A stretch of DNA of 64,000 nucleotides from Methanotrichaceae archaeon (GTDB taxonomy: Archaea; Halobacteriota; Methanosarcinia; Methanotrichales; Methanotrichaceae): positions 153,515 to 217,514 of the forward strand of contig CAWDLW010000020.1 in NCBI GenBank assembly GCA_963803145.1. Reading direction: 5' to 3'. Shown piece by piece: positions 3,402-63,143 of this stretch. The position numbers were made by a program, and so were the translations under genes. Each line of letters begins with the position of its first letter. Within the stretch, counting starts at the first letter, position 1. A model generated the notes under the pieces. That model ran no database searches. It was not told the origin of the DNA and saw only the letters and a program-made list of their open reading frames with translations.

Positions 3402-3728
3402 ATTGTTGAGATACAGTTGAATAGCCCAAAGGCGCATGAGCTGCGCCATTGGCCATATTTTTGAGGAGGTTATTTCTGAACCATGAACCGCAAATGCCTT
3501 TAAAGTATTTCCCTGGGCGACCAAATATCTCATCATAGAATTCTTTTCTTATGTCTTTATGGTTTCGCATGAAAATTGGCCAATGGGCATCGATTTAATA
3601 ATTCATTATGAGGCGCAGTCTCCTAGAAGTCTTCCACTAAAAACATTCATCCAGTAACTAAGTTATTCTTAGTTTTAGGATGGCTATGTATTTAAACGAT
3701 TGAGAGAATGAAGCAACGGGAGAACAAA

Positions 3729-4067
3729 ATGAGACGACTGATACTAATAATATCCATCTTACTAGCGATAACAGTTTTATCCCACAGCCTTGCACCAGCC
3801 CAACTTAGCGGCACCGATGGCATGGCATTGCTGAAGGGCTTGACAAACAGCTCGGAAAATCTTACTATGGGCAATAACACGACGTCTGACCACTCCAATA
3901 GCAAGATACTTGTCTCGCTCAGCGGCAATAATGGCACTGCGTTGCTATCCAACTTAACGAATAACCCGGCGAACCTGTCTTGGGGCTCTAAGCCACGTAC
4001 ACCGCCTCCACCACCATCATATACTGATGCCCTGTACGCTCAGGTTATCCATGATAACCACGTATGA
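3729..4067 (+). CDS. Small secreted protein with LSGxxGxALL repeats and Pro-rich tail (paralog of 15233-15583)
   Basis: Signal peptide; start set at ATG 3729 by alignment with the paralog. Confidence 0.75.
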   Translation: MRRLILIISILLAITVLSHSLAPAQLSGTDGMALLKGLTNSSENLTMGNNTTSDHSNSKILVSLSGNNGTALLSNLTNNPANLSWGSKPRTPPPPPSYTDALYAQVIHDNHV

Positions 4068-4260: not shown

Positions 4261-4524
4261 ATGATAATGTCCATTCCATTATCATCTCCTCCTTTACTTG
4301 CCGCCACATTTTTGATAGCTTTGGGCGTAGCTTTGATTCCCTTATCGGCAAGGTACGGCATCATATGCATAGGCGCAGGAAGCATCATTATGGGCTTAGT
4401 GATGTTGGCAGATCTGCCCAAAGGATTCGAGCTTCAAGGGATTATATTGTTTGGATTAGTCATCGTGGTGGGAGCCTGGATGATAGCTGTGGGCCTGAAG
4501 AATCCTGTAAAAAAGGATCGCTGA
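4261..4524 (+). CDS. Small membrane protein (about 3 TM)
   Basis: Three hydrophobic segments and a basic C-terminus. Confidence 0.6.
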   Translation: MIMSIPLSSPPLLAATFLIALGVALIPLSARYGIICIGAGSIIMGLVMLADLPKGFELQGIILFGLVIVVGAWMIAVGLKNPVKKDR

Positions 4525-4604
4525 AGATGAATTGGGTATCTTGAGATCATACTTTATATTTGGGGCCAATACTTGTGGCTTTGCTACTAACTTAAGAGCC
4601 TGCA

Positions 4605-4713
4605 CTCTCTGGGGCTAATACTAGCGGCTTTCCTGGCGCGCTCCAACGCCCGCGCGGGCTGCCCCTAACCCCTCTACGGGGGAAGGTTTTGGAAAACGCA
4701 TGCTATAAAGTTG
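4605..4713. repeat. GC-rich arm, inverted copy of 9349-9456
   Basis: 4650-4675 CCGCGCGGGCTGCCCCTAACCCCTCT is the exact reverse complement of 9389-9414; similarity extends over about 105 bp. Confidence 0.9.
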
Positions 4714-4763
4714 GAGGGGAATGGAAACGCTATAGTCGGAGATCCTTTTTGCATTTTGCTGCA

Positions 4764-6242
4764 CTAAACTCCGTCTATTGTCTTGTCCTTCCCAAGCTCT
4801 TCATATATCGACCTGAACTGCTCCAGCGCTGTCTCCAGATTCTCCACTATTTCGGCGGCCAGCACCTCAGGCTCTGGAAGGTTATCTGAATCCTCTAAAC
4901 TCTCGTCTTTGAGCCAGAAGATGTCCAGGCTGGCTTTATCCCTCTTCATGAGATCTTCGTAGCTAAAAGCCCTGAAGCGCTCAGTCTCCTGCCTCTGATG
5001 CCGATTATCAGGGTTATAGCACTTGATGAAGTCCTGCAGGTCCTCAAGCTTGAGGGGATTGGTCTTGAGTGTAAAGTGCTGATTGGTCCTCAGGTCGTAG
5101 ATCCAGAGCTTCTCAGTCCACGGATTTTGGCTGGCAGGCTTACGATCAAAGAATAACACGTTGGCCTTGACACCCTGGGCATAGAAAACGCCAGTGGGCA
5201 GCCGCAGTAGCGTGTGTACATCGCACTCCTGAAGCAGCTTACGCCTTACTGTTTCTCCTGCGCCGCCCTCGAAGAGAACGTTGTCAGGCACGACTATTGC
5301 TGCCCTGCCATTTATCTTGAGCAATGTCTTGATGTGCTGCAGGAAGTTGAGCTGCTTGTTGGAGGTCGTGGCACAGAAATCCTGGCGGCTGTATGTTATG
5401 GTCTCCTTATCGGTTTTACCCTCGCCATTGATGATGGTGATGCTGCTCTTTTTGCCAAATGGCGGATTGGTCAGAACCAGATCTGCACGCTCGCCTCGAT
5501 CTGCGATCAGGGAATCGGCCACATCAATTGGGCTTTCCTCGCCGCCTATGCCGTGGAGGTATAGGTTCATTGCACAGAGGCGGGCGACGCTGTCCACGAT
5601 GTCTGTGCCCTTTAGTGTTTTATTCTTCAGAAAAAGCTTTTGATCTTTATCCAGGGGATTTTGATGCTGATGCTCGACATAGTCGTAAGCCGCCAGGAGA
5701 AAGCCGCCTGTGCCGCATGCCGGATCGTTGATGGTCTCGCCGGGCTTAGGCCGCATAACTTCAACCATAGCCTTGATAAGCGATCTTGGCGTGAAATATT
5801 GCCCAGCTCCACCCTTAACGTCCTCGGCGTTCTTCTCAAGAAGGCCCTCGTAGATTTTGCCCTTCACATCTATATTTAGGCCGACCCAGGTCTCGCCATC
5901 GATAAGCTTAACCAGGCGCCTAAGTTTAGCTGGGTCCTGGATTTTGTTCTGGGATTTCCGGAATATGACGCCCAGCATTCCAGGCTCTTTGCCCAAAGCT
6001 TCAAGAATATGGCGATAATGAGCCTCAAGCTCTGCCCCACCCTTCTTCAGAATGCTTTGCCAATCGAGATCCTGTGGTATTTTCGAGGGCCTGTTATAGG
6101 GAGGGCGGCTCTGCTCATCGGCCATTTTAAGGAACAGCAGGTAGGTTAGCTGTTCCACATAGTCGCCGTAGCTAACGCCATCATCACGGAGAACATGGCA
6201 GTAGTTCCAAAATCGCTGGACGATGGTGGATTCTTCGGTCAT
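4764..6242 (-). CDS. hsdM: Type I restriction-modification N6-adenine methyltransferase
   Basis: Motif I DPACGTGGFL, motif IV NPPF, GQYFTPR. Confidence 0.95.
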   Translation of the reverse strand: MTEESTIVQRFWNYCHVLRDDGVSYGDYVEQLTYLLFLKMADEQSRPPYNRPSKIPQDLDWQSILKKGGAELEAHYRHILEALGKEPGMLGVIFRKSQNKIQDPAKLRRLVKLIDGETWVGLNIDVKGKIYEGLLEKNAEDVKGGAGQYFTPRSLIKAMVEVMRPKPGETINDPACGTGGFLLAAYDYVEHQHQNPLDKDQKLFLKNKTLKGTDIVDSVARLCAMNLYLHGIGGEESPIDVADSLIADRGERADLVLTNPPFGKKSSITIINGEGKTDKETITYSRQDFCATTSNKQLNFLQHIKTLLKINGRAAIVVPDNVLFEGGAGETVRRKLLQECDVHTLLRLPTGVFYAQGVKANVLFFDRKPASQNPWTEKLWIYDLRTNQHFTLKTNPLKLEDLQDFIKCYNPDNRHQRQETERFRAFSYEDLMKRDKASLDIFWLKDESLEDSDNLPEPEVLAAEIVENLETALEQFRSIYEELGKDKTIDGV

Positions 6243-7523
6243 TGGATCAGCCTCATCTGGCGGGTATTATTATTTCTTCTGCTTCTCCTTGGAGCTTCTT
6301 TTGCGCTTTCTGCTTTGATTCTCTCCGGGAGCACGCTGGCTGGCTCATCGTTGGGGTCTTGGGGGACGAGCCTGCCTTCGAAGGCACACTTGAGGACGGA
6401 TTGGCGAAGTTTGTCTGCATAAATGAGGTTTTGGCCTAAGATTTTCTCAGACTCATCGCAGATGGATAAACGTCTCTCAACTTCACCAACAATTATTTCA
6501 TTTTCCTCATTGGGTGGTAACGGGACAGGAAATGCGCTTAGTTTTGTGAGATTGACCGATGCGAGGTTTGTTGTTTGTTTTCCCTCTTTTAGGAAGTAAT
6601 TTTTGCCGTAAGTATTCCCAAACCAGGATACAAATTTATTGGAAACTTCTTTTGAATATAACCTCGCTCTAAATACGTGATTTTGATGGATACACTCAGG
6701 TAATTCCTTTTGCCATATCCAACCTCGACCTAATTTATCCCTATCTCCGCCTTCATTAAAGAGAATATCCCCCTGTTCTAGTCGTAGTTCTGAAATTGTC
6801 TCTTCAGATGCTTCAATTTCCTTAATTTCACTCAGATCGAGATATCCACGCTGAACATTCGCTACACGTAAATAAGGAACTCTACGGCCATTTTCTACTT
6901 TGCGTTTTGTATCTTTTGTTATCCCACCTTTAAGAGAGGCTAGTGCATCTAGCCGCACCCATAGCCAAGAATCAGGAAGCTTTGGTAACCCAGTTAAATC
7001 CAAACCATTTAAACCGCTAAACGCTTTTCCCGATCTGGCTTGTTTTATAACAAGAATACGTTTTAGCAACTCATCCGAAGGCTCCACATCCGGGTGCACC
7101 TTTCGCCACTCCTCCGTGAGCCTGCCCTCCGCCGCCGCCTTGAGCACCGCCTGACGATAGCGCTTGAGCTGGGCTTTAGCCTTCTGCAATGCCTCGGCTC
7201 CGGCATCTAATCGGCTGAAAAGCTCCTCAATGCGGGCAACGATGCGATGCTGTTCAGAAAGAGGTGGAATTAGAATAGGTATATTTCCCAATGTCTTTTG
7301 ATTTATGTTTGTAATAGTTACCTGGGAGCTTCCTTCAACAATCTTTTCGCGTATTAAATTGCTTCTTAAATAATATGTTACATATTCTGGGCTTGCTAAT
7401 ATCTTCTCTAATCGAGCCCTTATGATAAAACCACAAAAAGTTATAGGCTCATTCTCTTCCATAAACAAAGCTGGCCATCCAACTCCTTCCCTTTTCACAG
7501 ATGACCTTACTATAGTTAATCTC

Positions 7524-8051
7524 CTAGCTTTTTGCACTAAGAAATCGCTCCACCCAGGACTTTGAATATCCATCCTTTTTGGAATAAAATATTTCTAAAG
7601 CGCAATCTTGGCTAGCTATAATAGCTTCATCGAAATCAGTGTATTTGGCGATCTCTCTTTTGAAATCCTTCCAACCGAATTCTATAGGATTCAAATCTGG
7701 TGAATAGGGGATATTATAAATTAAGTGAATATCGATTTCCTCAGCTAGTTTTCTAAATTTCTTGGCCAAATGAATTCTAGCATTATCTAAAAGTATACAA
7801 ATTGGCCTCATAATATTATTATTTCTTATATTTTGAGCAAATGCCATCAACGCTTCCTTCTTAGAGGAGTTGGAAACCATAACCTCATCATTGCCATTTA
7901 ATGCTATAAATCCAAAAATAGTTCTTGATCTAACCTTTCCAGGTTTATAATTTATTAAATGAGTGTTTAAGACTCTACGTGTATTAGGGCGCTGTTGTAA
8001 AGAGCTTTCATCAAGAAATCCTATAACAGGATCAGTAACAGTGGTCAGCAC
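7524..8051 (-). CDS. IS630 transposase, DDE domain (ORF B)
   Basis: FLDES, LLDNARIH and PYSPDLNPIE motifs. Confidence 0.92.
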   Translation of the reverse strand: MLTTVTDPVIGFLDESSLQQRPNTRRVLNTHLINYKPGKVRSRTIFGFIALNGNDEVMVSNSSKKEALMAFAQNIRNNNIMRPICILLDNARIHLAKKFRKLAEEIDIHLIYNIPYSPDLNPIEFGWKDFKREIAKYTDFDEAIIASQDCALEIFYSKKDGYSKSWVERFLSAKS

Positions 8052-8529
8052 TGATTTTATCCTTTTTTAAAAAACTTTCTGCATCTGCAGGCCTCTTTTC
8101 ATTTCTGATGTATGGTTTCCCATACTTAACTTTTTTCACTACTCTTAAAATTCGCCAGCCATATTTATATGAAAAATCTATACCTCTTGTATCCCTTACA
8201 TATTTTAATACGTCTTTTATCGTCATTCCTTTGTCTTCAATTTCTTTAATAACTCTATCCCATTCATCAAGAGACATCTTTGGCTTTTTGCCATTTCTAT
8301 TCTTTGGTGTCAATCCATTATAGCCTTGATTATTCCATCTGCTTAACCAATATTTTATTGTCCTCTCGCCCCTTTTTAAAATATCAGCTACCTCATATAC
8401 GTTTTTCCCTTCATATAAATGTATTATTGCCAATAACCGTTCCTTAATCCTTAGATCAGTCTCTTTTTTATATAATTTATCAAGGTCTATCTTTGATATA
8501 TGCCTAATTATTATAGGTTTTCTACCCAT
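8032..8529 (-). CDS. IS630 transposase, HTH DNA-binding domain (ORF A)
   Basis: RLLAIIHLYEG...VADIL...TIKYWLSRWNNQGYNGL HTH; overlaps ORF B across a T6A6G tract. Confidence 0.9.
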   Translation of the reverse strand: MGRKPIIIRHISKIDLDKLYKKETDLRIKERLLAIIHLYEGKNVYEVADILKRGERTIKYWLSRWNNQGYNGLTPKNRNGKKPKMSLDEWDRVIKEIEDKGMTIKDVLKYVRDTRGIDFSYKYGWRILRVVKKVKYGKPYIRNEKRPADAESFLKKDKISADHCY

Positions 8530-8837
8530 GCCTATGTATTTTCACGCATTAATTATTAAATGTATCTATAGGGCAATAAGCTCAATGATTAACTATAATA
8601 ATACATCGCCATTATTCAAATAGTAATCTTTGTTTATATCTTTATTAACTCTATATAGACTATCTTTATTTATGCCGATGCTTTTGGAGTACATGTTTAA
8701 TACATCAATGGTTAATATACCTTGATCGCTTTTTTGTTCACTCGAAAAATTAATACCGTTTTTGAATTCTGCTATTTCTTTAAAACTAGTTAACGTCCAA
8801 TTAGGAGGTAAATTATTTTGATCCTTCTCGACGTCCA

Positions 8838-8993
8838 TCATTCTGCTAGCGCCTCGTTCCGTGGATCATTTGCCCTATCCTGGAGCGATTTTGACTCCAT
8901 AAAATCCTGGATAGTCTTGTCCTTGGAATATTCTTCGATCAGGTCTATGGACTCCAAAATGTGGGCAAAGAAAATCAGAGGATCTTTCTTCAT
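8838..8993 (-). pseudogene. Truncated HepT/DUF86 (HEPN) toxin fused to a remnant of the hsdR C-terminus
   Basis: My translation: MKKDPLIFFAHILESIDLIEEYSKDKTIQDFMESKSLQD-RANDPR-NEALAE*; ATGA overlap with the MNT gene; no RxxxxH motif. Confidence 0.8.
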
Positions 8994-9277
8994 AATATAG
9001 GGACCTGCTCAGCTAATATTCTTTCTTTGAGTAGAGGATGCAAAGACCGATATGTAACAACATCAACTCGCCTATTCAGGGCATCTTCAAGCTCAATTTT
9101 TAATCCTGAGATATCCAGCAGGCTCTTTCTTCCTTCAAACTCTACCAGAAGATCCACATCGCTCTCCTCGGTCATCTCCCCTCTTACGATTGACCCAAAA
9201 AACGATGCCCTTTTTACGTCATTCCGGCGTAGGATGTCTATTATCTTTTCACGGACGGGCTGCATCTGGTCTCTCAT
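8990..9277 (-). CDS. Minimal nucleotidyltransferase (MNT) antitoxin
   Basis: FGSIVRGE...SDVDLLV and VDVVT motifs; 95 aa. Confidence 0.92.
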   Translation of the reverse strand: MRDQMQPVREKIIDILRRNDVKRASFFGSIVRGEMTEESDVDLLVEFEGRKSLLDISGLKIELEDALNRRVDVVTYRSLHPLLKERILAEQVPIL

Positions 9278-9348
9278 TTTCCTCCCCTAGAACATTGAGA
9301 TTATACCATTTTACTTTTTCTGCGTTATGCTGTTCATCTTGCTTTCAT

Positions 9349-9456
9349 CAACCTTATAGCCTATCGTTTTCCAGAGCCTTCCCCCGGCAGAGGGGTTAGG
9401 GGCAGCCCGCGCGGCGATTGAGCGCGCTAGAATAGCCGTTAGAGTTAGCGCCAGAG
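9349..9456. repeat. GC-rich arm, inverted copy of 4605-4713 and homologous to 60512-60625
   Basis: GGGGTTAGGGGCAGCCCGCGCGGCGATTGAGCGCGC versus GGGGTCAGGAGCAGCCCGCGCGGCGCCTGAGCGCGC at 60.5 kb. Confidence 0.9.
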
Positions 9457-9630
9457 AAAAGCGTAGCTTTTGAATTGTATTAGCCTGCTTTAGCGTGAAA
9501 TCAAAGCGATTCTGAATCATGCGCCCTTGAACTAAAACCTTTTGAAGATAGGTCGGCGACTACCCAGATAAGCTTAAATCCCTATTTATATATCAAAATT
9601 GGCAAAGAGTACTCAGGAGTTGTCTCAGAA

Positions 9631-10212
9631 ATGAGGATGAATTTGAGTATCTGGCTGAATCTGATGTTAATTGTGACCTTTTCCCTATTGCTCAGCGGCT
9701 GCCTTGGTAATGGGGACAATAAAATGCATGTAGCTCAGGGCACGCATCTCAAATTTATGAATATGGGGCCATATTTAGTAGAGCTGAACCTGACGGACAA
9801 TAATGAGTACTCTATTGGTGATGTAAAAATCGATAGGGGCAACGTGAAGACTGGCCCTCCGGATCGCTTCACTCCATCCAATTATACCCAATATAGCAGA
9901 GATATCATGGATAAAATGGGCGGGGAGAAGAAGTTATCTCTAAAGATTGACCATTACGATGCGAAGATAATGACCTCTAATGATAACCTTCTTCAGCTTG
10001 GCCTTTTGAAGTGGCCCTGGGATGGAAGCGCCCAATATGAGTCGCATTATTTAAAGAACTACGATTGGGTCACCGCAAAGGGGGCGCTAGATAACGAAAT
10101 TGATGCAGCCAGCTGGATTGATGATCATACTATGCTCTCGCTGAAGATGTTCAATCTCAATCAGAGCGATTCACTGGCGATATTAGATTCTGTGATGTCC
10201 AGATCCTTATAA
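9631..10212 (+). CDS. Putative lipoprotein, unknown function
   Basis: Hydrophobic leader ending in an LSGC lipobox. Confidence 0.7.
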   Translation: MRMNLSIWLNLMLIVTFSLLLSGCLGNGDNKMHVAQGTHLKFMNMGPYLVELNLTDNNEYSIGDVKIDRGNVKTGPPDRFTPSNYTQYSRDIMDKMGGEKKLSLKIDHYDAKIMTSNDNLLQLGLLKWPWDGSAQYESHYLKNYDWVTAKGALDNEIDAASWIDDHTMLSLKMFNLNQSDSLAILDSVMSRSL

Positions 10213-10357
10213 AGCCCCGATCCTTATAATCCTAGACCTGCCAGCCTGCGGCTTTCAAAGGGTCATCGATCTTCTGGCGTGCCAGCTCCCCTGGCGTAAT
10301 TGGGTTTTCCTTTTACTGGCCATCTTTATTAATAATGTATCCACTTGGAAGAAAAGC

Positions 10358-11350
10358 ATGCTCATCCTCAGCGCAGGCGACGTCCGCCAGGCCCTGCCCA
10401 TGGCCCAGGCTATTGAGGCCATGAAGCGCTCCTTCGCAGCATTATCCTCAGGCAGAGCTAAAGTGCCATTGAGATCAAAGCTCGAGATCGGCCCTTATGA
10501 GGGCACCAGCCTATTCATGCCCGCTTTCGTGCAGGATGAAGACGATATGGCTCTGGCAGTAAAGGCCGTATCTGTGTATCCCCGCAATGCCAAATCTGAG
10601 GTTCCTGTCGTGAATGCGGCCGTTCTAGTGCTTGAGCCATCCACAGGCCAGCCCATTGCCCTGGTGGAGGGCAGATCTCTCACTGCCATCCGCACCGGCG
10701 CAGCATCCGGGGCTGCCACAGATCTGCTCTCAAGGAAGGACTGCCATGTGGCGGCTTTAATTGGTGCAGGAACTCAGGGAAAAGCCCAGCTTGAGGCTAT
10801 ATGCACCGTGCGCTCTATCGCCACATGCTGGATATATGATATCGATACAGCCAGGGCCAGGGCATTCATATCCGAGATGAAACGCAAAGGCGGCCCTGTG
10901 CCATCGGACCTTCGCCTGGCACAAAGTCCCGGCCAGGCGGTGTCTGGAGCTGATATAATCTGCACTGCAACCACGTCTCGGCAGCCAGTCTTTGATGATA
11001 CCGATGTGAGACCAGGCGTGCACATAAACGGGATCGGTTCTTTCACCTCCGAGATGAGCGAGGTGCCGCCGGAGACTGTAGCCCGCGCCACAGTTGTGGT
11101 GGATTCGAGAGATGCAGCCATGGCAGAGGCGGGGGATCTGATAAAGCCCATTCACCAAGGCATGTTTGGGCCTGAAAAAATAGATGCTGAGCTTGGCGAG
11201 ATAGTGCTGGAAGTGAAGCCGGGACGGATATATAAGGGCCAGATAACGTTCTTCAAATCAGTGGGCGTGGCTTCTCAGGATGCAACCGCAGCCAGCCTCG
11301 CTTTGAGAAACGCTCTGGATATGGGCCTGGGACATGAAGTGGATTGGTAG
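10358..11350 (+). CDS. Ornithine cyclodeaminase/mu-crystallin family protein
   Basis: LTAIRTGAASG, IGAGTQG and FFKSVGVASQD motifs. Confidence 0.9.
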   Translation: MLILSAGDVRQALPMAQAIEAMKRSFAALSSGRAKVPLRSKLEIGPYEGTSLFMPAFVQDEDDMALAVKAVSVYPRNAKSEVPVVNAAVLVLEPSTGQPIALVEGRSLTAIRTGAASGAATDLLSRKDCHVAALIGAGTQGKAQLEAICTVRSIATCWIYDIDTARARAFISEMKRKGGPVPSDLRLAQSPGQAVSGADIICTATTSRQPVFDDTDVRPGVHINGIGSFTSEMSEVPPETVARATVVVDSRDAAMAEAGDLIKPIHQGMFGPEKIDAELGEIVLEVKPGRIYKGQITFFKSVGVASQDATAASLALRNALDMGLGHEVDW

Positions 11351-11377
11351 CCAGCAATAAACCCTAATCATATTGAT

Positions 11378-14152
11378 CTATCCTGCCAGCGCCTCATTCA
11401 TCTCATCCATGATCTTCCCAAACTCCTGCCCAAACAGCTTGTAAGCCCTCACCGGCCCGCCATGCTCATAAAATGGCGCAAGCTCCAGATCATCCATGCC
11501 GATAGCAAGGCTGGTGGCTATGTGATCCTTAATCATCTCCAGCCATTCATTTTGCTCTGTCGTAAACTTATGGCCGTTTCCTTCCTGCTCAGAGAGCCAG
11601 GCATCAAACCTCTCGTTCACAATCTCCGGAAATGGCCTAAGTTCCTGGCTCTCTCCAATGGCGAACCTCACCAGCGAGATTATGTTGGTGAGCATCTTCT
11701 GCGGCCCGGCATCCTTTACCTTCGACCTCTCAAGCTGCTCATAAGCCTGCCATACCAGATCGGGCGCGAGGTTGTATGGCGGCCTTTGGATGGCCTCAGA
11801 AAGCTGCTTGATCTGCTCATAAGTGAGATGTCGCTGGCCATAGGGCTTGCTGTAGATGATCTGCAGAGCGGTCAGCTCATCTTTGTTATCATCGATGAAC
11901 TGCCTGAAGCTGCTTGTGAGCTCGCTTGCCCGTTCCATCGCTCGGGAGCCGCCTCCCGCAAACAGAACCCTATCCTTGGATAGCTCATCGATGATCTGCT
12001 CGTTCTTCTTTTTGATATCGATCAGAGCATTCCTGAACTTTGGGTCATCAAATGGCAGACATGCAGCCTTGGCCAGCTCCTTGGTAGCCTTCTTGATCTG
12101 TTCCTCAGTAGGTTTTTCTGTCTTGAAGATCTCACTGGCCTTTGCCTGCTGCTTATCGGGATCGACAGCGTCCAGCAAGCTGTTCATTATCTGCTTGAGC
12201 GGCCTTCCACCCGCAGCTTTTGTCAGGTCTTCACGATCCTTCTGGCCGAGCTCCCTGTCAAACCTGGCAAGCCTGCCGGCTAACGTAGTAAGTGTTTTCT
12301 CGTTTCTCACACCCAGCGCGACAGATTTTACAAGCCTCTCGAAGGAAACGTTCTTCTTGCGCTCCAGCGGTCTTGTGTCGGTCTTGTCACGCTCGCAAAC
12401 TCCTACGGCATCCACAATGACAAAGTGAGTCTTGTTAAAGGCGTCAGGCGTCACAGCCCTGAAATCCGTCTGGGAAATTGTTCTTGTGCCCCGACCCTTC
12501 ATCTGCTCGAAATATACCTGGGATTTGACATCCCTCATGAAAATCAGGCACTCCAGGGGCTTAATGTCCGTGCCGGTTGATATCATGTCAACGGTGACTG
12601 CTATTCGAGGGTTGTAGGAGTTCCGGAAACTGGCTATCAAGTTGCTGGGCTTCTCCTGCGTTCGATAGGTGATCTTCTTGCAGAAATCGTTCCCCTTGCC
12701 GAACTCCTCTCGGATGATCCTGACTATATCCTCGGCATGTGAATCATCCTTGGCAAAGATGAGCGTCTTGGGAACTTCTGTCCTTTCAGGAAATATTTCG
12801 GGCAGCTTATCCTTGAATGTTCGGATAACAGTCCTGATCTGGTCTGTGGATACAACATCACGGTCAAGCTGCCTGGCGGTATACTCGAAGTCCTCATCGA
12901 GCATCTCCCAGCGCTTCTTCCTGGTCAGCTTATCCCGGATATCGATGTAGTAACCAGCCTCAACCTTGCTGCCCTTCTCAGAGATCTCAGTCTGAATCCG
13001 ATATACCTCATATCCCACATTGACACCATCAGCGACCGCCCTCTCATGGTTGTACTCCATCACCAGATTCTGATTGAAGAATCCTAAGGTCTGCTTGGAT
13101 GGCGTGGCAGTCATGCCGACCAGAAAGGCATCGAAATACTCCAGCACCTGGCGCCAGAGGTTGTAAATGGACCGATGGCATTCATCTGTGATCACAAAAT
13201 CGAAGGTTTCAATGGGTATTTGCGGGTTGTAGGAGATCTCAACCGGGCGGTCGCCTATCGGCGTTACATCAAAGAGCGACTGATCCTCGATCTGCGGGTC
13301 CAGGTCCGCCTCGCCCCTGAGCATGGAGTAAAGCCTCTGAATTGTTGTAATGCATACACGGCTCACAGGATCAAAGGTGTTTGAGGTTAGATGCTGAACG
13401 TTGTAAAGTTCAGTGAACTTTCTGCCGTCATCAGGCGTAACATATTGTTTGAACTCTGTTAAAGCCTGCTCCCCTAAGGTCTTCCTGTCCACCAGAAAAA
13501 GAATGCGCCTAGCGTTGGCGAACTTGATCAGCCTATAGATGAAGCTCACTGCTGCAAACGTTTTTCCGCTGCCGGTCGCCATCTGTATGAGCGCCCTGGG
13601 CTTGGCTTCGGCAAAGGATTTCTCTAAGTTCGAGACTGCCTCGATCTGGCATTCTCTTAAGTTGCCAATCATCAGGTCGGGCAGGTCTCTCAGCCTCGAC
13701 CTCAGAGTATCCTCCTCCGAAAGCCATTCTGCAAAGGTCTCAGGCTTATGGAATGCGAACGTTCTGCGAGAACGCGGTTCTGGATCTCTCAGATCCACAA
13801 AGAAAGTCTCAGCGCCCGTGCTCTCATACCCAAATGGAAGTGGATCATGAACATGTGGGATCTCATCCGGCAGACTGGTTAGGTAGCCGCCTGTCTGCTC
13901 TTCAACGCCGCTTAGTGTGATACCTTTGGGTTTGGCCTCGATTGCTCCGATGGCCTCACGGTCTATAAAAAGAAGGTAATCTGCAAAACCAGATTCCAGA
14001 GGAAACTCACGAACAGCAATTCCTAATGATGATCCCAGATTCAGGTCGTTATAATCCTGGATCTGCCAGCCAGCATCCAACAGATGTCGATCAATCTCCT
14101 TGCGGGCTTCCTCCTCTGGGGTCATGATGTTAAGCCCTGTTGTAACAACCAT
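11378..14152 (-). CDS. hsdR: Type I restriction endonuclease subunit R
   Basis: ADYLLF...IEAK nuclease motif, MATGSGKT Walker A, DECHRS, QMKGRGTR. Confidence 0.95.
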   Translation of the reverse strand: MVVTTGLNIMTPEEEARKEIDRHLLDAGWQIQDYNDLNLGSSLGIAVREFPLESGFADYLLFIDREAIGAIEAKPKGITLSGVEEQTGGYLTSLPDEIPHVHDPLPFGYESTGAETFFVDLRDPEPRSRRTFAFHKPETFAEWLSEEDTLRSRLRDLPDLMIGNLRECQIEAVSNLEKSFAEAKPRALIQMATGSGKTFAAVSFIYRLIKFANARRILFLVDRKTLGEQALTEFKQYVTPDDGRKFTELYNVQHLTSNTFDPVSRVCITTIQRLYSMLRGEADLDPQIEDQSLFDVTPIGDRPVEISYNPQIPIETFDFVITDECHRSIYNLWRQVLEYFDAFLVGMTATPSKQTLGFFNQNLVMEYNHERAVADGVNVGYEVYRIQTEISEKGSKVEAGYYIDIRDKLTRKKRWEMLDEDFEYTARQLDRDVVSTDQIRTVIRTFKDKLPEIFPERTEVPKTLIFAKDDSHAEDIVRIIREEFGKGNDFCKKITYRTQEKPSNLIASFRNSYNPRIAVTVDMISTGTDIKPLECLIFMRDVKSQVYFEQMKGRGTRTISQTDFRAVTPDAFNKTHFVIVDAVGVCERDKTDTRPLERKKNVSFERLVKSVALGVRNEKTLTTLAGRLARFDRELGQKDREDLTKAAGGRPLKQIMNSLLDAVDPDKQQAKASEIFKTEKPTEEQIKKATKELAKAACLPFDDPKFRNALIDIKKKNEQIIDELSKDRVLFAGGGSRAMERASELTSSFRQFIDDNKDELTALQIIYSKPYGQRHLTYEQIKQLSEAIQRPPYNLAPDLVWQAYEQLERSKVKDAGPQKMLTNIISLVRFAIGESQELRPFPEIVNERFDAWLSEQEGNGHKFTTEQNEWLEMIKDHIATSLAIGMDDLELAPFYEHGGPVRAYKLFGQEFGKIMDEMNEALAG

Positions 14153-14306
14153 TATTAATATTAGGCATAATCTTTAGTATGTGATACAAAATAACAATGG
14201 TAGCAGGGAGATGACTAATACCACAGGACCATAAACCAAGCTTAAGACATAATCTCTCAAAAGGCTCTTATCTGAATAGCTCATACTCATCCTGGGGATC
14301 TGGCCT

Positions 14307-15098: not shown

Positions 15099-15232
15099 GA
15101 TTTTACCTTTGCAAATGCCTGAATCTTGAATAGTCCTCCTGTCGAGAGCTAAGGGGATTATTCAGAATTATGCAGCCTGGGAATAGCACAGCATATTTAA
15201 GCGATTGATGAAATCAAACATCAGGGAATGAA

Positions 15233-15583
15233 ATGAGACGACTAATGCTATTACTACTAGTTCTGCTAACGATGGCGGTTTTAGCTAATAGCCTAACAAC
15301 CGTCCATCTTAGTGGCAATGGCGGCCTAGCATTACTAAACGGCTTGACAAACAGTTCGGAAAATATGACTGATGCAAATAAAACTGGAATAAATCTTTCA
15401 ATAAGCGGGTCTTCCATTCCACTTAGCGGCAATAATGGCACTACGTTGCTAAATAATATATCAAAAGATCCTGCGAATCTATCCTTTGGGTCTACACCCC
15501 GCTCGCCTCCTCCACCTCCGACCTACGATCCTCAGTTAGAGGAAGAAATTGCGATCCTAAGGGCAAATCACGTTGGATACTGA
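15233..15583 (+). CDS. Small secreted protein, paralog of 3729-4067
   Basis: LSGNGGLALL, LSGNNGTTLL and PANLSFGSTPRSPPPPP align with the paralog. Confidence 0.75.
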   Translation: MRRLMLLLLVLLTMAVLANSLTTVHLSGNGGLALLNGLTNSSENMTDANKTGINLSISGSSIPLSGNNGTTLLNNISKDPANLSFGSTPRSPPPPPTYDPQLEEEIAILRANHVGY

Positions 15584-15611
15584 GGACATACGACCTGATG
15601 TGATGGCTATC

Positions 15612-15665
15612 ATATCGCCACGATATTGCCACGATATTGCCACGATATTGCCACGATATCGCCAT
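15612..15665. repeat. 11-bp tandem repeat ATAT(T/C)GCCACG, about 5 units
   Basis: Read directly; intergenic. Confidence 0.9.
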
Positions 15666-41857: not shown

Positions 41858-42589
41858 TGATATAGCGTATCTCATTAATGTCTTTGAGGATAAAGCACCT
41901 AACCAATTGCCAGACTAATATCGGCATCGTTTATAAATATGACCTTCTATTTCTTCTAAATTCGATCCTTCAGCGGATTCACCAGTCCATTATCGATATG
42001 AACAGCGATATTTTCAATCTAGATGGATGTATCATTTCCACCGTATGAGAACTACAGATTGCTATCTTGCCGGTCTATTGCTTCATGCAAAATCTGGCCA
42101 AGCCTGGCTAACCAACATCTTAAACAGATACTATCGAAATTCACCGATTTACTATTAGGCCATATAGACTAAGCACATATTGTACTTAATAATCGCCTTA
42201 GGGTGGCGATTGGGATGAAAAATAGTCCATTATAATTTGGTTTTGCTGTTCACTCACCTGATTTAAATAAAATGGTATGTATAGCAATGAGCAAAAAAGG
42301 AAAGTCTCTATGATTAAGACCAAGAATAGAAATTTATTGTGTTTATACAACCCTTTTAGATTTTTTATGGAATAAATCTCTTTAAAATCCCATACTTTTC
42401 TAATAATACCGTCTTCATTCATCATATATGATGCCTTCAATCGAAGCATGCCATCAAGCATCATAAGGAGGCTCGCCACCAAAGGATACCATAATAATCG
42501 CAAGACATCTAAAAACCGGTCGTGTATGCGTTCCGATGAAATAGTTATATGTTTATAATGATACATTCTTTAAAAGGGATGTATCAAAA

Positions 42590-43006
42590 ATGTCTGATAT
42601 TACATTGTCCGATTACTGGTGCCATCATGAAGGCTGCCAGGATTATGGCATAAACGATAAAGGCAACATAGTGATAAAAGATCACTATGGAAAGAACAAC
42701 CGTGCGCTCTTGAAGTGTAGAACATGTGGTCATTGTTTCAGCGAGACTCGCGGAACAATATTTTTCGGTTTAAGCACATCAGATGAGGAAGTCTTAGATG
42801 TCCTGGCCCAATTGGTAGAAAAAGGCAGTATTCGTGGTGTTGCAAGATCTACAGGTCATGATAAAAATACAATCTGCCGATGGCTCAAAAGGGCAGCGGA
42901 TCATTGCAAAGAGGTCAATGATTACTTCCTGAACCATCTTCATCTTACACAAGTGCAGATAGATGAAATATGGTCATTTTGTAAAAAAACAAAAAAATGT
43001 AAGTAG
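42590..43006 (+). CDS. IS1-family InsA-like Zn-ribbon/HTH protein
   Basis: C....C and CRTC Zn ligands; SIRGVARSTGHDKNTICRW HTH; QIDEIWSF. Confidence 0.88.
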   Translation: MSDITLSDYWCHHEGCQDYGINDKGNIVIKDHYGKNNRALLKCRTCGHCFSETRGTIFFGLSTSDEEVLDVLAQLVEKGSIRGVARSTGHDKNTICRWLKRAADHCKEVNDYFLNHLHLTQVQIDEIWSFCKKTKKCK

Positions 43007-56294: not shown

Positions 56295-56369
56295 GCGAAT
56301 TCCTCTATCACTATCCTATCAATATCATTGGTCAAACGTTATGATCTTCAGGGAATCTGGGCTTATTAG

Positions 56370-56478
56370 CTTCACCCAGCTGGCACCCAGCTAGCATCCA
56401 ACTAGCATTAGGCTAGCATCCAACTAGCACCCGACTAGCATCCAACTAGCATTAGGCTAGCATCCAACTAGCATCCGC
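56370..56478. repeat. 11-bp minisatellite (CTAGCATCCAA consensus), 9 units plus a partial, with 44-bp higher-order period
   Basis: Units read directly: variants ending CCCAG/CCCGA, TCCAA, TTAGG, TCCAA in a repeated order. Confidence 0.92.
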
Positions 56479-56530
56479 CCGGCCTGCCAGCCCCCGATGA
56501 TGGTCGAGCGACTGGTTACATGTTATACGA

Positions 56531-60308: not shown

Positions 60309-60511
60309 ACGGTTTTTGGATTTTGAAGCTGCAAGCTATATGACCTTAAGTGCTCCATAAAAATTGCTGCTGTCTTTGTCAGCCACCGTGATCTGATAAT
60401 TATGGGATCATCCACTACAGTTCAGATCAACAGCCCAATCACATGTAACTATCAATGGTTAATTCATGTTTTTCCTGAATCACATCAAGCCTTGAATCCA
60501 ACCGATGTAAG

Positions 60512-60742
60512 TGTTCCCCGCTTGCGGGGTCAGGAGCAGCCCGCGCGGCGCCTGAGCGCGCCCCGTCAACTGCTAGCGCGCGAGATCCCCAGACGCGCGG
60601 GTACGCCAGAAGTCTGTAGATTTTCTGCTAACAGGCTCCTGGATTCAGTACTAACGGGCAACTTCTGGGGCGAGGCAGATATAGCTACACGGGGCGCCCT
60701 CAAGGCCGGGCGGGCCCCCTGACCCTGCCTCCGGCGGGGACA
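60512..60742. repeat. GC-rich palindromic element, copy 1 (left arm plus right arm)
   Basis: About 55-bp imperfect terminal inverted repeats, plus inner CCAGAAGT/ACTTCTGG pairing. Confidence 0.88.
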
Positions 60743-60758
60743 ATTCACGTTATGGTTC

Positions 60759-61223
60759 CTACAAAGCAAAATGGTCCAACGATATCCGGCAATCAAGATC
60801 CTCTTTTGGTTCATCGGTTAATTCTATTTCATTATCCTCGCACCATTGAAGAAGTTCCTCGTTCTCCCGTTCATTCTCAAAATTATACCAGCTCTGCAGC
60901 AGTCCCTTACTTTCCAGAAGATACTTGAACGTTCCATAAGCTCCTCGGTGCCCGAAAATCTGCCGGACAGCATTGTATTCATCCGGCAAACTCATTTCGA
61001 CGAATTCAAAAACAAGCTGTTGACCTAGATCAAGATCATTTTTATGAGGGATCTGTATAAATTCATCACAATCAAGTTCATCATCTATTTCGTCCAGGTC
61101 CCCTGACTCCGAACGATAATATATTTGGCCTGTACCTTTACAGAGAACTGCTAAGTTCCCGCCTTGTGGGGCTGAGCTCACAAACGAGAACGCATCCTGG
61201 ATATCGCTGAATGTGACCATCAT
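60759..61223 (-). CDS. UPF0158-family protein
   Basis: TGQIYY, FEFVE, GAY.TFK.LL...GL...WY.FE...L.QWC.DN.I motifs. Confidence 0.8.
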   Translation of the reverse strand: MMVTFSDIQDAFSFVSSAPQGGNLAVLCKGTGQIYYRSESGDLDEIDDELDCDEFIQIPHKNDLDLGQQLVFEFVEMSLPDEYNAVRQIFGHRGAYGTFKYLLESKGLLQSWYNFENERENEELLQWCEDNEIELTDEPKEDLDCRISLDHFAL

Positions 61224-61227
61224 CCCC

Positions 61228-61563
61228 TCACTTTTTCAATGACGCCTCAAGTTCAGCCTTCCGGAGTTCAAGCTCCTCTAGCAGTTCTTTTGTTTCAGAT
61301 ATCGCCTTCTTGATTTTCCGAAGCTCCGTTTTATTCTTATGTTCAGCCAGGTATTCCTGTCCAAGCTCATCGGCAATATATTCTTCGAGTTGGCTTCTTA
61401 AAATTTTGACGTATGGATATCCCCACATCGATCCTTGGCGATATTCAAGTTTGCCGGCCTCTATACCTTTGATAACGAAATCGCGATCTACTCCGTATTC
61501 CTTCTTTGCGGTTTTATCGCTGAGGGTCGCGCCTTTCAGATTCCATTCGCCATATTTTGCCAT
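61228..61563 (-). CDS. Hypothetical protein (HTH-like plus coiled coil)
   Basis: ATLSDKTAKKEYG...I.AGKLEYR and a coiled-coil tail; closely spaced with the UPF0158 gene. Confidence 0.7.
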   Translation of the reverse strand: MAKYGEWNLKGATLSDKTAKKEYGVDRDFVIKGIEAGKLEYRQGSMWGYPYVKILRSQLEEYIADELGQEYLAEHKNKTELRKIKKAISETKELLEELELRKAELEASLKK

Positions 61564-61593
61564 AAATCCTCAGCTGATCAGATCTCATTAGGC

Positions 61594-61794
61594 TTATTCC
61601 TTGTTTTTTCTCATCAGTCTCGCTAGCTTATTCTCAAGTCTCTTCCTTTTTCTTTGTAGCCAAAATTTTTTTCCTAAAAGTTTTTTATTGATCTCCTTAA
61701 GCTCATTAAATTTTTTCATTACTTCTTCTTTATCATCATAGTTGATCTCATCCGGATCAAGATCGATTATGCTATGCTTAATAATATCTGCCAC
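61594..61794 (-). CDS. Small charged coiled-coil hypothetical protein
   Basis: Acidic N-terminal half, basic C-terminal half; GTG start. Confidence 0.5.
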   Translation of the reverse strand: MADIIKHSIIDLDPDEINYDDKEEVMKKFNELKEINKKLLGKKFWLQRKRKRLENKLARLMRKNKE

Positions 61795-61892
61795 ACCTGA
61801 ATATATATAGGATCAACTAATTATATCTTCTGGTTTTATCAATTTTATCTGAAAGCTGACGATTTTTGAACCAGACGTCAAGCTTATTTAAA

Positions 61893-62155
61893 CGTCCTCC
61901 GCTTGCGGAATCATAGGCAGCCCGCGGCACCTGAGCGTGCCCAAAACCGCCAGCACTAGCAACGCAGCATCACAGGAAAAGGCGGTAGCGTTATTTATTC
62001 TGGTTTTTGCATACCGCGTCTTAAGTTAAAAAGTCACTTTTAGCAAGGTCCATGAGTCTAATACTGAGGGCAACTTCTGGGGTGAGGCAGATATAACTAC
62101 GACGGGGCGCTCTCAGGGCCGAGCGGGCCCCCTGACCCTGCCTCCGGCGGGGACA
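61893..62155. repeat. GC-rich palindromic element, copy 2 (direct repeat of 60512-60742)
   Basis: Right arm GGGCAACTTCTGGGG...GCGGGCCCCCTGACCCTGCCTCCGGCGGGGACA is near-identical to copy 1; left arm more diverged. Confidence 0.88.
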
Positions 62156-62726
62156 TCTATATGAAGGACGCACAGATTAATAATAAAGGGATCTAGCCAG
62201 GCTTTAAGGATGCAGCCTTGATATCCTTGAAGCCTATGGTTGGTTTCTCATCAGCTAGGATGACGAATCATTCCACTCTTTTGGAATTAAGGCATTGCCA
62301 TCTCGCCAGCGCTCTACTAGATGGATATTATCAACACCTTCCCAAGCAATCTCGTCAGCATGCTCAATTACTATTATCTGTAGTTTTCCCTTTGTTCTTG
62401 TGATGCCTTCAGATAGAGCTTGAAAAATTTTCCGCGTTCGATTTAAGTCGTCGCTGTTAGGCTGTTTAATAGGCTCTTCAGGTCTTCTAGGGTTAGGGTC
62501 TAGCGGCCATCTTTCTGGGAAATAAACTTGACTGGGCTGATCGATGATTAAAAATTGGGGTACAAAGTTCTTCTGCAATGATATAAAATATTCGTGCAAG
62601 GCCAAAAGGACTGATATATGATAGCCCATCCAATTAGCGCCGCTTCCAATTTCCGGTCGTGTATGCGTTCCGATGAAATAGTTATATGTTTATAATGATA
62701 CATTCTTTAAAAGGGATGTATCAAAA

Positions 62727-63143
62727 ATGTCTGATATTACATTGTCCGATTACTGGTGCCATCATGAAGGCTGCCAGGATTATGGCATAAACGATAAAGG
62801 CAACATAGTGATAAAAGATCACTATGGAAAGAACAACCGTGCGCTCTTGAAGTGTAGAACATGTGGTCATTGTTTCAGCGAGACTCGCGGAACAATATTT
62901 TTCGGTTTAAGCACATCAGATGAGGAAGTCTTAGATGTCCTGGCCCAATTGGTAGAAAAAGGCAGTATTCGTGGTGTTGCAAGATCTACAGGTCATGATA
63001 AAAATACAATCTGCCGATGGCTCAAAAGGGCAGCGGATCATTGCAAAGAGGTCAATGATTACTTCCTGAACCATCTTCATCTTACACAAGTGCAGATAGA
63101 TGAAATATGGTCATTTTGTAAAAAAACAAAAAAATGTAAGTAG
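62727..63143 (+). CDS. IS1-family InsA-like protein
   Basis: Identical translation to 42590-43006. Confidence 0.88.
   Translation: MSDITLSDYWCHHEGCQDYGINDKGNIVIKDHYGKNNRALLKCRTCGHCFSETRGTIFFGLSTSDEEVLDVLAQLVEKGSIRGVARSTGHDKNTICRWLKRAADHCKEVNDYFLNHLHLTQVQIDEIWSFCKKTKKCK

Follow-up and report, generated by a model that had tools for sequence, protein, structure and literature searches.

Inverted arms around part of a type I restriction-modification locus in a Methanotrichaceae archaeon are very probably two members of a genus-wide family of hairpin-bearing intergenic repeats

The 64,000-nt window analysed here comes from a Methanotrichaceae archaeon (assembly GCA_963803145.1, contig CAWDLW010000020.1, positions 153,515 to 217,514) and carries a type I restriction-modification (R-M) locus in which two inverted copies of a short GC-rich sequence, hereafter the arms, enclose some of the genes. 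The initial annotation proposed that the arms are recombination or mobilisation sites defining a defence module, invertible or exchangeable in trans, composed of hsdM, hsdS, HEPN' and MNT. We have examined the locus, its counterparts in two congeners and the occurrence of the arm sequence throughout the genome, and the results indicate that the arms are very likely members of a dispersed repeat family. In the following, G000 denotes the genome of the window, G001 and G002 its congeners, and C numbers their contigs.

The genes between the arms all lie on the minus strand. The methyltransferase subunit gene hsdM (4764-6242, 492 aa) is recognised by the Pfam families N6_Mtase (3.9e-69) and HsdM_N (2.3e-11) and, like the restriction subunit gene hsdR, has full-length Pfam matches, whereas hsdS is interrupted by an insertion sequence (IS). 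What remains of hsdS is a 444-aa open reading frame (ORF) that lacks the start of the first target-recognition domain (6239-7573; Methylase_S in two stretches, 1.6e-16) and an 82-aa N-terminal fragment (8593-8841), which has no Pfam match and was assigned from a single comparison, in which it matches the beginning of the second recognition domain in the 444-aa protein (E 3e-4). The intervening element is a complete IS630-family element (7511-8597, minus strand), with Pfam matches in the ORFs at 8032-8529 (helix-turn-helix) and 7524-8051 (DDE_3); it has 29 BLAST matches in the genome (about 28 relatives), 19 of which start at 7511 and 10 of which end at 8597, and terminal inverted repeats were read at its ends. 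Further along, an MNT-type nucleotidyltransferase (8990-9277, 95 aa; Polbeta 7.2e-17, NTP_transf_2 4.5e-16) lies next to a 51-aa fragment (8838-8993) that we assign only weakly as a truncated HepT/HEPN-like protein, as in a single comparison it shares 12 of 27 residues with the N-terminal end of a HepT-like paralogue (E 0.002), with no Pfam match even at E 1. Beyond the right arm two genes are found on the plus strand (9631-11350), namely a 193-aa ORF without a Pfam match and a gene of the ornithine cyclodeaminase family (10358-11350; OCD_Mu_crystall 1.1e-61), and these are followed by hsdR (11378-14152, minus strand, 924 aa; EcoEI_R_C 4.4e-42, ResIII 3.2e-37), which lies outside the arm pair. 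The proposed cargo is therefore sound in respect to hsdM, MNT and the 444-aa HsdS and weak in respect to HEPN, and it left the IS630-family element unlisted; likewise, the statement that no recombinase lies between the arms is correct for site-specific recombinases but overlooks this complete element.

The arms themselves are as described. An inverted-repeat search of the window pairs 4650-4682 with 9382-9414 (33 nt, 94% complementary), and within these lies an exact 26-nt core, at 4650-4675 on the plus and 9389-9414 on the minus strand, which are the sole two matches in the window when up to 3 mismatches are allowed; two matches were found in none of 100 shuffles. Using a repeat profile built from genomic copies and searched against the genome with nhmmer (E <= 1e-3), we are able to delimit the left arm to 4607-4718 on the plus strand (C20:158121-158232, model positions 11-121), which places it downstream of hsdM at 46 nt from the stop codon, and the right arm to 9345-9465 on the minus strand (C20:162859-162979, model positions 2-120), upstream of the MNT gene and inside the gap between hsdR and hsdS. 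The two are 84% identical across about 108 nt (E 3.3e-24), in agreement with the reported inverted arms of about 105 bp with a perfect core, whose stated limits (4605-4713 and 9349-9456) are close to those of the profile. A relationship had also been claimed to arms at 60.5-62.2 kb, and this holds for the GC-rich core, as inferred from the inverted-repeat search, the profile and the alignment: a diverged copy lies at 60491-60576 on the minus strand (C20:214005-214090, model positions 25-112, E 6.7e-8) and a more decayed one was aligned near 61.89-61.96 kb, both retaining the GC-rich centre of the arms in diverged form. A second, low-copy GC-rich repeat is also present in this region (60656-60742 and 62068-62155, 94% alike, found at 4 places in the genome); together with the adjoining diverged family copies it brackets a cassette of about 1.3 kb made of small minus-strand ORFs (window 60600-62160).

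At the scale of the genome the arms lose their apparent exclusivity. The 26-nt core, for which a genome-wide search had been proposed, is not pair-specific, occurring exactly 10 times, against no occurrence of the reversed control pattern. When the left arm is used as query it returns at least 42 matches (40 of 97 candidates scored), with the right arm only in fifteenth place, and among the matches listed the left arm has at least 13 relatives closer to it than the right arm. The profile finds 121 matches; 93 of these are long copies, with 80 or more model positions covered, and 67 are nearly full length. The family is present in all three genomes of the genus, with 19 scored matches in each of G001 and G002. 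These results argue strongly that each arm belongs independently to a non-coding intergenic repeat family found throughout the genus, with some 90-120 copies in this genome, and not the dedicated ends of a module; their inverted layout is a minority outcome of where family members happen to lie. Before a pair of inverted repeats around defence genes is taken to delimit a module, the copy number of the repeat should thus be known.

A comparison with the congeners evidences which DNA actually varies at the locus. The stretch 4422-14273 is absent from G001, in which 4368-4421 and the sequence from 14274 onward are adjacent and separated by around 30 nt (BLAST, junction read); since the flanks are this close, the missing DNA takes in the two arms, the pair of opposite-strand genes and hsdR, and it is this stretch that truly varies as a unit here. 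It is flanked by paralogous small secreted-protein genes (3708-4067 and about 15212-15571), which are 71-72% identical at the DNA level and 11504 nt apart. A different rearrangement is found in G002 (C2:399.7-402.8 kb), where window position 5456 is fused to 12945, so that the 3' part of hsdM runs into an internal point of hsdR and 5457-12944 is absent; this R-M remnant lacks hsdS, MNT and the right arm, and retains the orthologous left arm beside what is left of hsdM. To the left of that arm G002 has a 541-aa gene which G000 does not have. Each arm adjoins a junction of variable content, but the pair is not the boundary of the varying DNA, as both 4422-14273 and 5457-12944 differ from the span of the arms; a comparison of strains for different cargo between the same arms had been proposed, and the congeners show these two stretches instead.

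The metagenomic relatives of hsdM complete this picture. At the DNA level, the closest loci are compact hsdR-hsdS-hsdM operons on one strand, without the two opposite-strand genes, and the repeat was found near none of 80 metagenome hsdM loci. The arms thus enclose only part of an R-M system, leaving hsdR outside, and these operons together with the G001 and G002 comparisons indicate that the ancestral unit was the whole operon. The inter-arm segment keeps its ancestral orientation relative to hsdR, and the gap between hsdR and hsdS that holds the right arm has received further DNA as well, namely MNT-HEPN', an IS and the two genes foreign to the operon. An inverted or excised form of the inter-arm block was seen neither in G001 and G002 nor in contigs of relatives. 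The latter come from sequencing runs, of which 8 were found, all from relatives and containing at most 0.21 of the sampled words; the 4 runs compared are represented by contigs 90-99% alike that break at the arms, leave window 9672-11339 uncovered, and show no inversion or excision joint at the arms, rare forms being invisible in contigs. Two joints found in them, 4689>7511 (side 28) and 13431>9208, were assigned to other variants or loci.

A clearer view of what the repeats do emerges from their placement. They are intergenic, with only 3 of the 93 long copies overlapped by an ORF of at least 120 aa, and neighbouring genes are not arranged in any preferred way around them: relative to the repeat, both neighbours are plus in 28 of 92 copies and both minus in 25, with 24 plus-minus and 15 minus-plus. 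Random scatter relative to accessory-gene boundaries had been named among the findings that would speak against recombination sites, and the copies are not placed at random: 54 of the 93 have a neighbour within 6 kb, where 500 trials of random placement averaged 21.5 and never exceeded 42, and 34 of these neighbours are in the same orientation versus 7 in the opposite one, the arm pair being among the 7. On contigs C8, C15 and C23 co-oriented copies form arrays with a spacing of 0.9-3.5 kb, while many other copies are solitary. The cassettes in the arrays consist of one to few small genes and are rich in toxin-antitoxin systems: UPF0175 with DUF3368/PIN, HepT with MNT, MazF, PIN with DUF2281, and DUF4258 with DUF2283, alongside glyoxalase, acylphosphatase, glycosyltransferase fragments and IS elements. 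The arrays examined contain no recombinase, nor does one stand at their ends, and none of the 13 tyrosine recombinases (PF00589) of the genome lies inside an array, the IntI-specific insertion not having been examined in them. The nearest ones, a truncated 160-aa protein and a 292-aa protein, are 4.2-4.5 kb from a repeat and are unconvincing as the enzyme of the repeat.

The repeats are also accompanied by a gene family encoding about 190 aa, with a 74-aa ORF in front (locus L035:3482-4282, which is G000 C23:47.5-48.3 kb, and around 23 other places), whose 3' end is usually 30-170 nt from a repeat copy. Among the 41 genomes searched it has 24 matches in G000 and 20 in G002, while G001 and one other genus have 1 each. 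Neither Pfam nor NCBIfam yields a match, and its atlas matches are unnamed clusters at 0.90-0.91, below a useful level of recognition; an AlphaFold model derived from 6 paralogues (mean pLDDT 69.8) has no PDB match at E <= 0.001, the best being 0.077. A comparison of each repeat half with the neighbouring gene in 7 pairs gave correlations that are not significant (r 0.36 with p 0.11 for the half nearer to the gene, r -0.04 with p 0.50 for the farther one).

Clearly, the repeats mark places of exchange between the congeners, with breaks of synteny and re-sorted cassette junctions. The repeat-bounded G000 cassette at L035 12250-13542 is 90% identical to G002:C4:21192-22486; in G002 it directly precedes the counterpart of L035 2884-4284, a segment that in G000 is found on its opposite side at a distance of 8 kb. 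The repeat common to both G002 cassettes corresponds to one G000 parent before the invariant centre of the element and to the other parent after it. We have compared 44 repeat sites of G002 (40 distinct by our own reading), and both flanks lie beside a G000 repeat in 5 of them, the same repeat in 2 and different repeats in 3. In agreement, within 779 kb of G002 only 2 of 18 repeat sites are colinear in G000 (2 of 12 when both flanks are found), whereas random sites are colinear in 82 of 150 cases (82 of 108 when both flanks are located). Pairs of a filled and an empty site are seldom simple, and those examined are ambiguous. In one, a G002 copy takes the place of 44 nt in G000 and is bordered on both sides by a 7-nt repeat, but a target duplication is doubtful since one of the two 7-nt copies lies inside conserved element sequence; a second is a replacement by unrelated DNA and a third a deletion between paralogues. 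The idea of exchange sites is therefore supported at the level of the family, whose copies lie at cassette junctions and synteny breaks, and not supported for the arms as limits of a module.

The element has a core of 122 nt (about 120), with homology extending some 30 nt on each side to a total of about 170-180 nt, and contains two short GC hairpins flanking an almost invariant centre; a subfamily of about 280 nt has an extra half copy upstream, which spans model positions 1 to about 64 and is joined by a linker measuring about 80 nt. The overall folding of the arms as single-stranded DNA is no better than that of shuffled sequences, with z values of +0.68, +0.48, +1.80 and +1.05 for both arms and both strands and with 149, 137, 196 and 176 of 200 shuffles folding as well or better, so that the element is not an overall palindrome of the attC or REP (repetitive extragenic palindromic) type. 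Terminal inverted repeats are also absent, as inferred from the lack of end-to-end pairing in the folds and of complementary ends in the flanks of 67 copies. A distinct result was obtained for one of the hairpins. In an alignment of 89 copies from the three genomes, a 5-bp stem undergoes compensatory change, with 94.6% of cells paired: columns 48-64 hold GC in 47 copies, CG in 22, AU in 9, GU in 7 and other combinations in 4, and columns 47-65 hold CG in 75 and UA in 10. Doubly changed cells amount to 43, as compared with 10.5 in shuffles, none of 500 of which reached 43, and with 2-6 in controls with slid partners. The 9-nt loop of this stem is conserved, the second stem of 4 GC-rich pairs is almost invariant, and a T-run follows the second hairpin in the alignment. 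The covarying stem and its conserved loop therefore suggest that some protein recognises the folded single strand, be it DNA or RNA.

The repeat is, in addition, a target of insertion sequences. An IS110-family element, encoding a 419-aa DEDD transposase, is found at the same position in at least 6 different repeat copies of G000 (C8:490.2-491.9, C34:3.4-5.0, C18:150.0-151.7, C42:1.6-3.3, C27:14.0-15.6 and C23:210.3-211.9 kb), always after the same short motif and with the repeat resuming beyond it, and for this reason we read the repeat as a specific DNA target. Candidates for a parent element were rejected in turn: for the IS110-family element the repeat is its target and not its ends, the ends of the IS630-family element are unrelated, and those of an IS200-like element with a Y1 transposase are unrelated as well, without a profile match even with filters off. 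The latter accounts for the 3 intact members among 6 matches to PF01797 (Y1), which are identical 617-bp IS200-like elements with GC hairpins at both ends and a 156-aa transposase (C13:57036-57404, C15:365000-365368 and C33:17366-17734); no repeat lies in or beside the one that was examined.

The search for the family covered 41 genomes, the three of the genus and 38 further relatives, and in these relatives only core fragments were found, in 3 genera. Among species-representative genomes the core pattern occurs at 37 loci, 34 of them in records titled Methanotrichaceae archaeon and 3 bacterial, and the latter we take as chance, given a 20-letter pattern and the volume of DNA, by our own estimate. 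The core pattern has no match in viral contigs, and the arm none in plasmids and phages. Rfam 15 yields no match at the gathering score for the whole window, the 4 matches at E 0.13-7.1 being far below it. A surface-level literature search found no published description of repeats in this methanogen lineage, and the main text of a paper on archaeal integrons and CALINs (clusters of attC sites lacking integron-integrases) contains neither Methanothrix, nor Methanosaeta, nor Methanotrich* (PMC9668308). The family looks undescribed and combines traits of several known kinds of repeats.

A number of known systems can be compared with it. REP sequences and bacterial interspersed mosaic elements (BIME) are hairpin-forming extragenic repeats tied to RAYT (REP-associated tyrosine transposase) proteins and are specific targets of IS110-family and other IS. 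The repeat is most like these in its short GC-rich hairpins, extragenic position, clustering, number of at least about a hundred copies, use as an IS110-family target and compensated stem; it differs in that the unit is 120-180 nt, is not an overall palindrome and resides in an archaeal host, and in that no Y1 gene is flanked by copies, the intact ones being IS200-like with unrelated ends. Chromosomal integrons, of which the Vibrio cholerae repeats are an example, form arrays with conserved attC sites, and in layout the repeat is most like such arrays and CALINs, sharing co-oriented repeats with a length of about 120 bp, short cassettes among which toxin-antitoxin genes are frequent, an order that varies between relatives and, as in CALINs, no adjacent integrase. 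Unlike these, it has no attC-type fold and no integrase beside the arrays, its genes are not oriented by the repeat and many copies are solitary. Miniature inverted-repeat transposable elements (MITE) resemble it in size, copy number and non-coding, intergenic nature, but terminal inverted repeats, a convincing target duplication and a parent IS are not found here. In phase-variable type I R-M systems, hsdS half-genes are inverted via intracoding repeats with an adjacent recombinase; the present locus likewise has inverted repeats near a type I R-M system, but its only hsdS, broken by an IS, has both parts on the same strand, its repeats are intergenic and the only enzyme of DNA rearrangement between the arms is a DDE transposase. 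Judged by the features that define attC sites, MITEs, RAYT-linked REPs and invertible hsdS loci, the repeat does not qualify as any of them.

How the exchanges come about can be approached with graded confidence. Our preferred reading is that the copies are mobile or recombination-prone DNA sites that accumulate in accessory regions; exchange at or within them would lead short cassettes between co-oriented copies to be lost, gained and re-ordered between lineages, and the hairpin could serve as the structure that a protein binds on a single strand. In its more specific form, this would be an integron-like cassette system of Methanotrichaceae, so far undescribed, in which mostly toxin-antitoxin cassettes, each a circle with one repeat, are excised, re-inserted and re-ordered by a site-specific recombinase encoded elsewhere and other than the canonical integron integrase, at a hairpin-bearing junction site of about 120 nt unlike attC. 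We put this forward only tentatively. The co-oriented arrays and their spacing, cassettes of the kind held by chromosomal integrons (toxin-antitoxin pairs, glyoxalase, small ORFs without assignment), and their re-ordering between congeners with junctions inside the repeat speak for such a system, and hairpin covariation and the IS110-family insertions fit as well, IS1111-attC elements targeting attC sites in a similar manner. Against it stand the folds of the arms, none of which is attC-like (z +0.48 to +1.80, with 137-196 of 200 shuffles equal or better), the absence of tyrosine recombinases from the arrays, gene orientations that are not fixed relative to the repeat, the many solitary copies and the lack of a single apparent crossover point. 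That the repeat is instead a MITE-like non-autonomous transposon, spread by a transposase acting in trans and afterwards serving only as passive homology for recombination, is a possibility that we regard with the same reserve. A small, non-coding, intergenic element with about 100 copies and no preference in orientation toward genes fits this view, the lack of subfamily structure resembles the outcome of a burst of spread, and the G002 copy facing 44 nt in G000 with a 7-nt repeat on both sides counts in the same direction; yet its ends are unpaired and unlike those of the IS630-family and IS200-like elements, the 7-nt duplication is doubtful, and the 34 co-oriented neighbours against 7 are unexpected from random insertion.

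Two further explanations have less in their favour. It is rather unlikely that each copy is a small RNA gene or an RNA regulatory element whose hairpin is an RNA structure: the covarying stem and conserved loop, the T-run after the second hairpin and an orientation independent of neighbouring genes, as in free-standing genes, would be accounted for, but the Rfam matches are at chance level, overall folding is no better than in shuffles, and around 100 diverged copies targeted by an IS fit DNA repeats better. The original proposal, that the arms define the hsdM-hsdS-HEPN'-MNT block and allow an enzyme in trans to invert or exchange it, we consider improbable. It draws on the inverted arrangement and the exact shared core, on the position of family members at cassette junctions and synteny breaks, and on the DNA outside the left arm, which differs between G000 and G002. 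However, the stretches that vary do not coincide with 4719-9344, hsdR of the same ancestral operon is excluded while the block keeps its ancestral orientation, the left arm has closer relatives than its partner and shares its core with other copies, neighbours are mostly co-oriented, and the run contigs, which cannot show rare forms, contain no inversion joint.

Returning to the repeats as sites of cassette exchange, several observations weigh against this reading. A transposase, a terminal inverted repeat or a clear target duplication belonging to the repeat was not found, and its mobility is unproven. One orthologous site carries unrelated AT-rich DNA in place of the repeat, which is a replacement and not the clean insertion of a copy. 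Distances calculated for five segments in 88 distinct copies are uncorrelated, even between neighbouring segments, with the exception of the pair straddling the centre (r 0.21), and neither subfamilies nor one constant point of crossover can be discerned from them. RNAalifold, run on the same alignment, chose other short invariant stems without compensatory pairs and missed the covarying hairpin, which as a result rests solely on the count made for the named structure. The context counts were obtained with greedy ORF calls and without a gene finder. Copy numbers are slightly inflated, as some contig ends of G000 are near-duplicates (C9:1-5748, C38:42718-48041 and C17:252825-257187, 98.6-99.9% identical), which is assembly redundancy or strain mixture and matches the contamination estimate of 6.77%. 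Lastly, the run contigs count neither for nor against rare inversion.

The significance of the family depends on which process operates. If exchange is driven by an enzyme, it would constitute a second way, besides integrons, to stockpile and shuffle small accessory genes, in archaea that are important for global methane production; if it proceeds by passive homology only, the repeats would still explain why toxin-antitoxin islands are scrambled between species.

The window holds other repeated sequences. Between 24300 and 28100, tandem coding repeats of 261 nt (87 codons) occur in up to 11 copies with 60-78% identity, and this region is probably one large gene for a repeat-domain surface protein. 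Two arrays of 11-nt tandem repeats are present at 56362-56482 and 15603-15657. A direct repeat of at least 300 nt, 100% identical, links 42516-42815 with 62653-62952 over a distance of 20137 nt, the two being probably copies of an insertion sequence.

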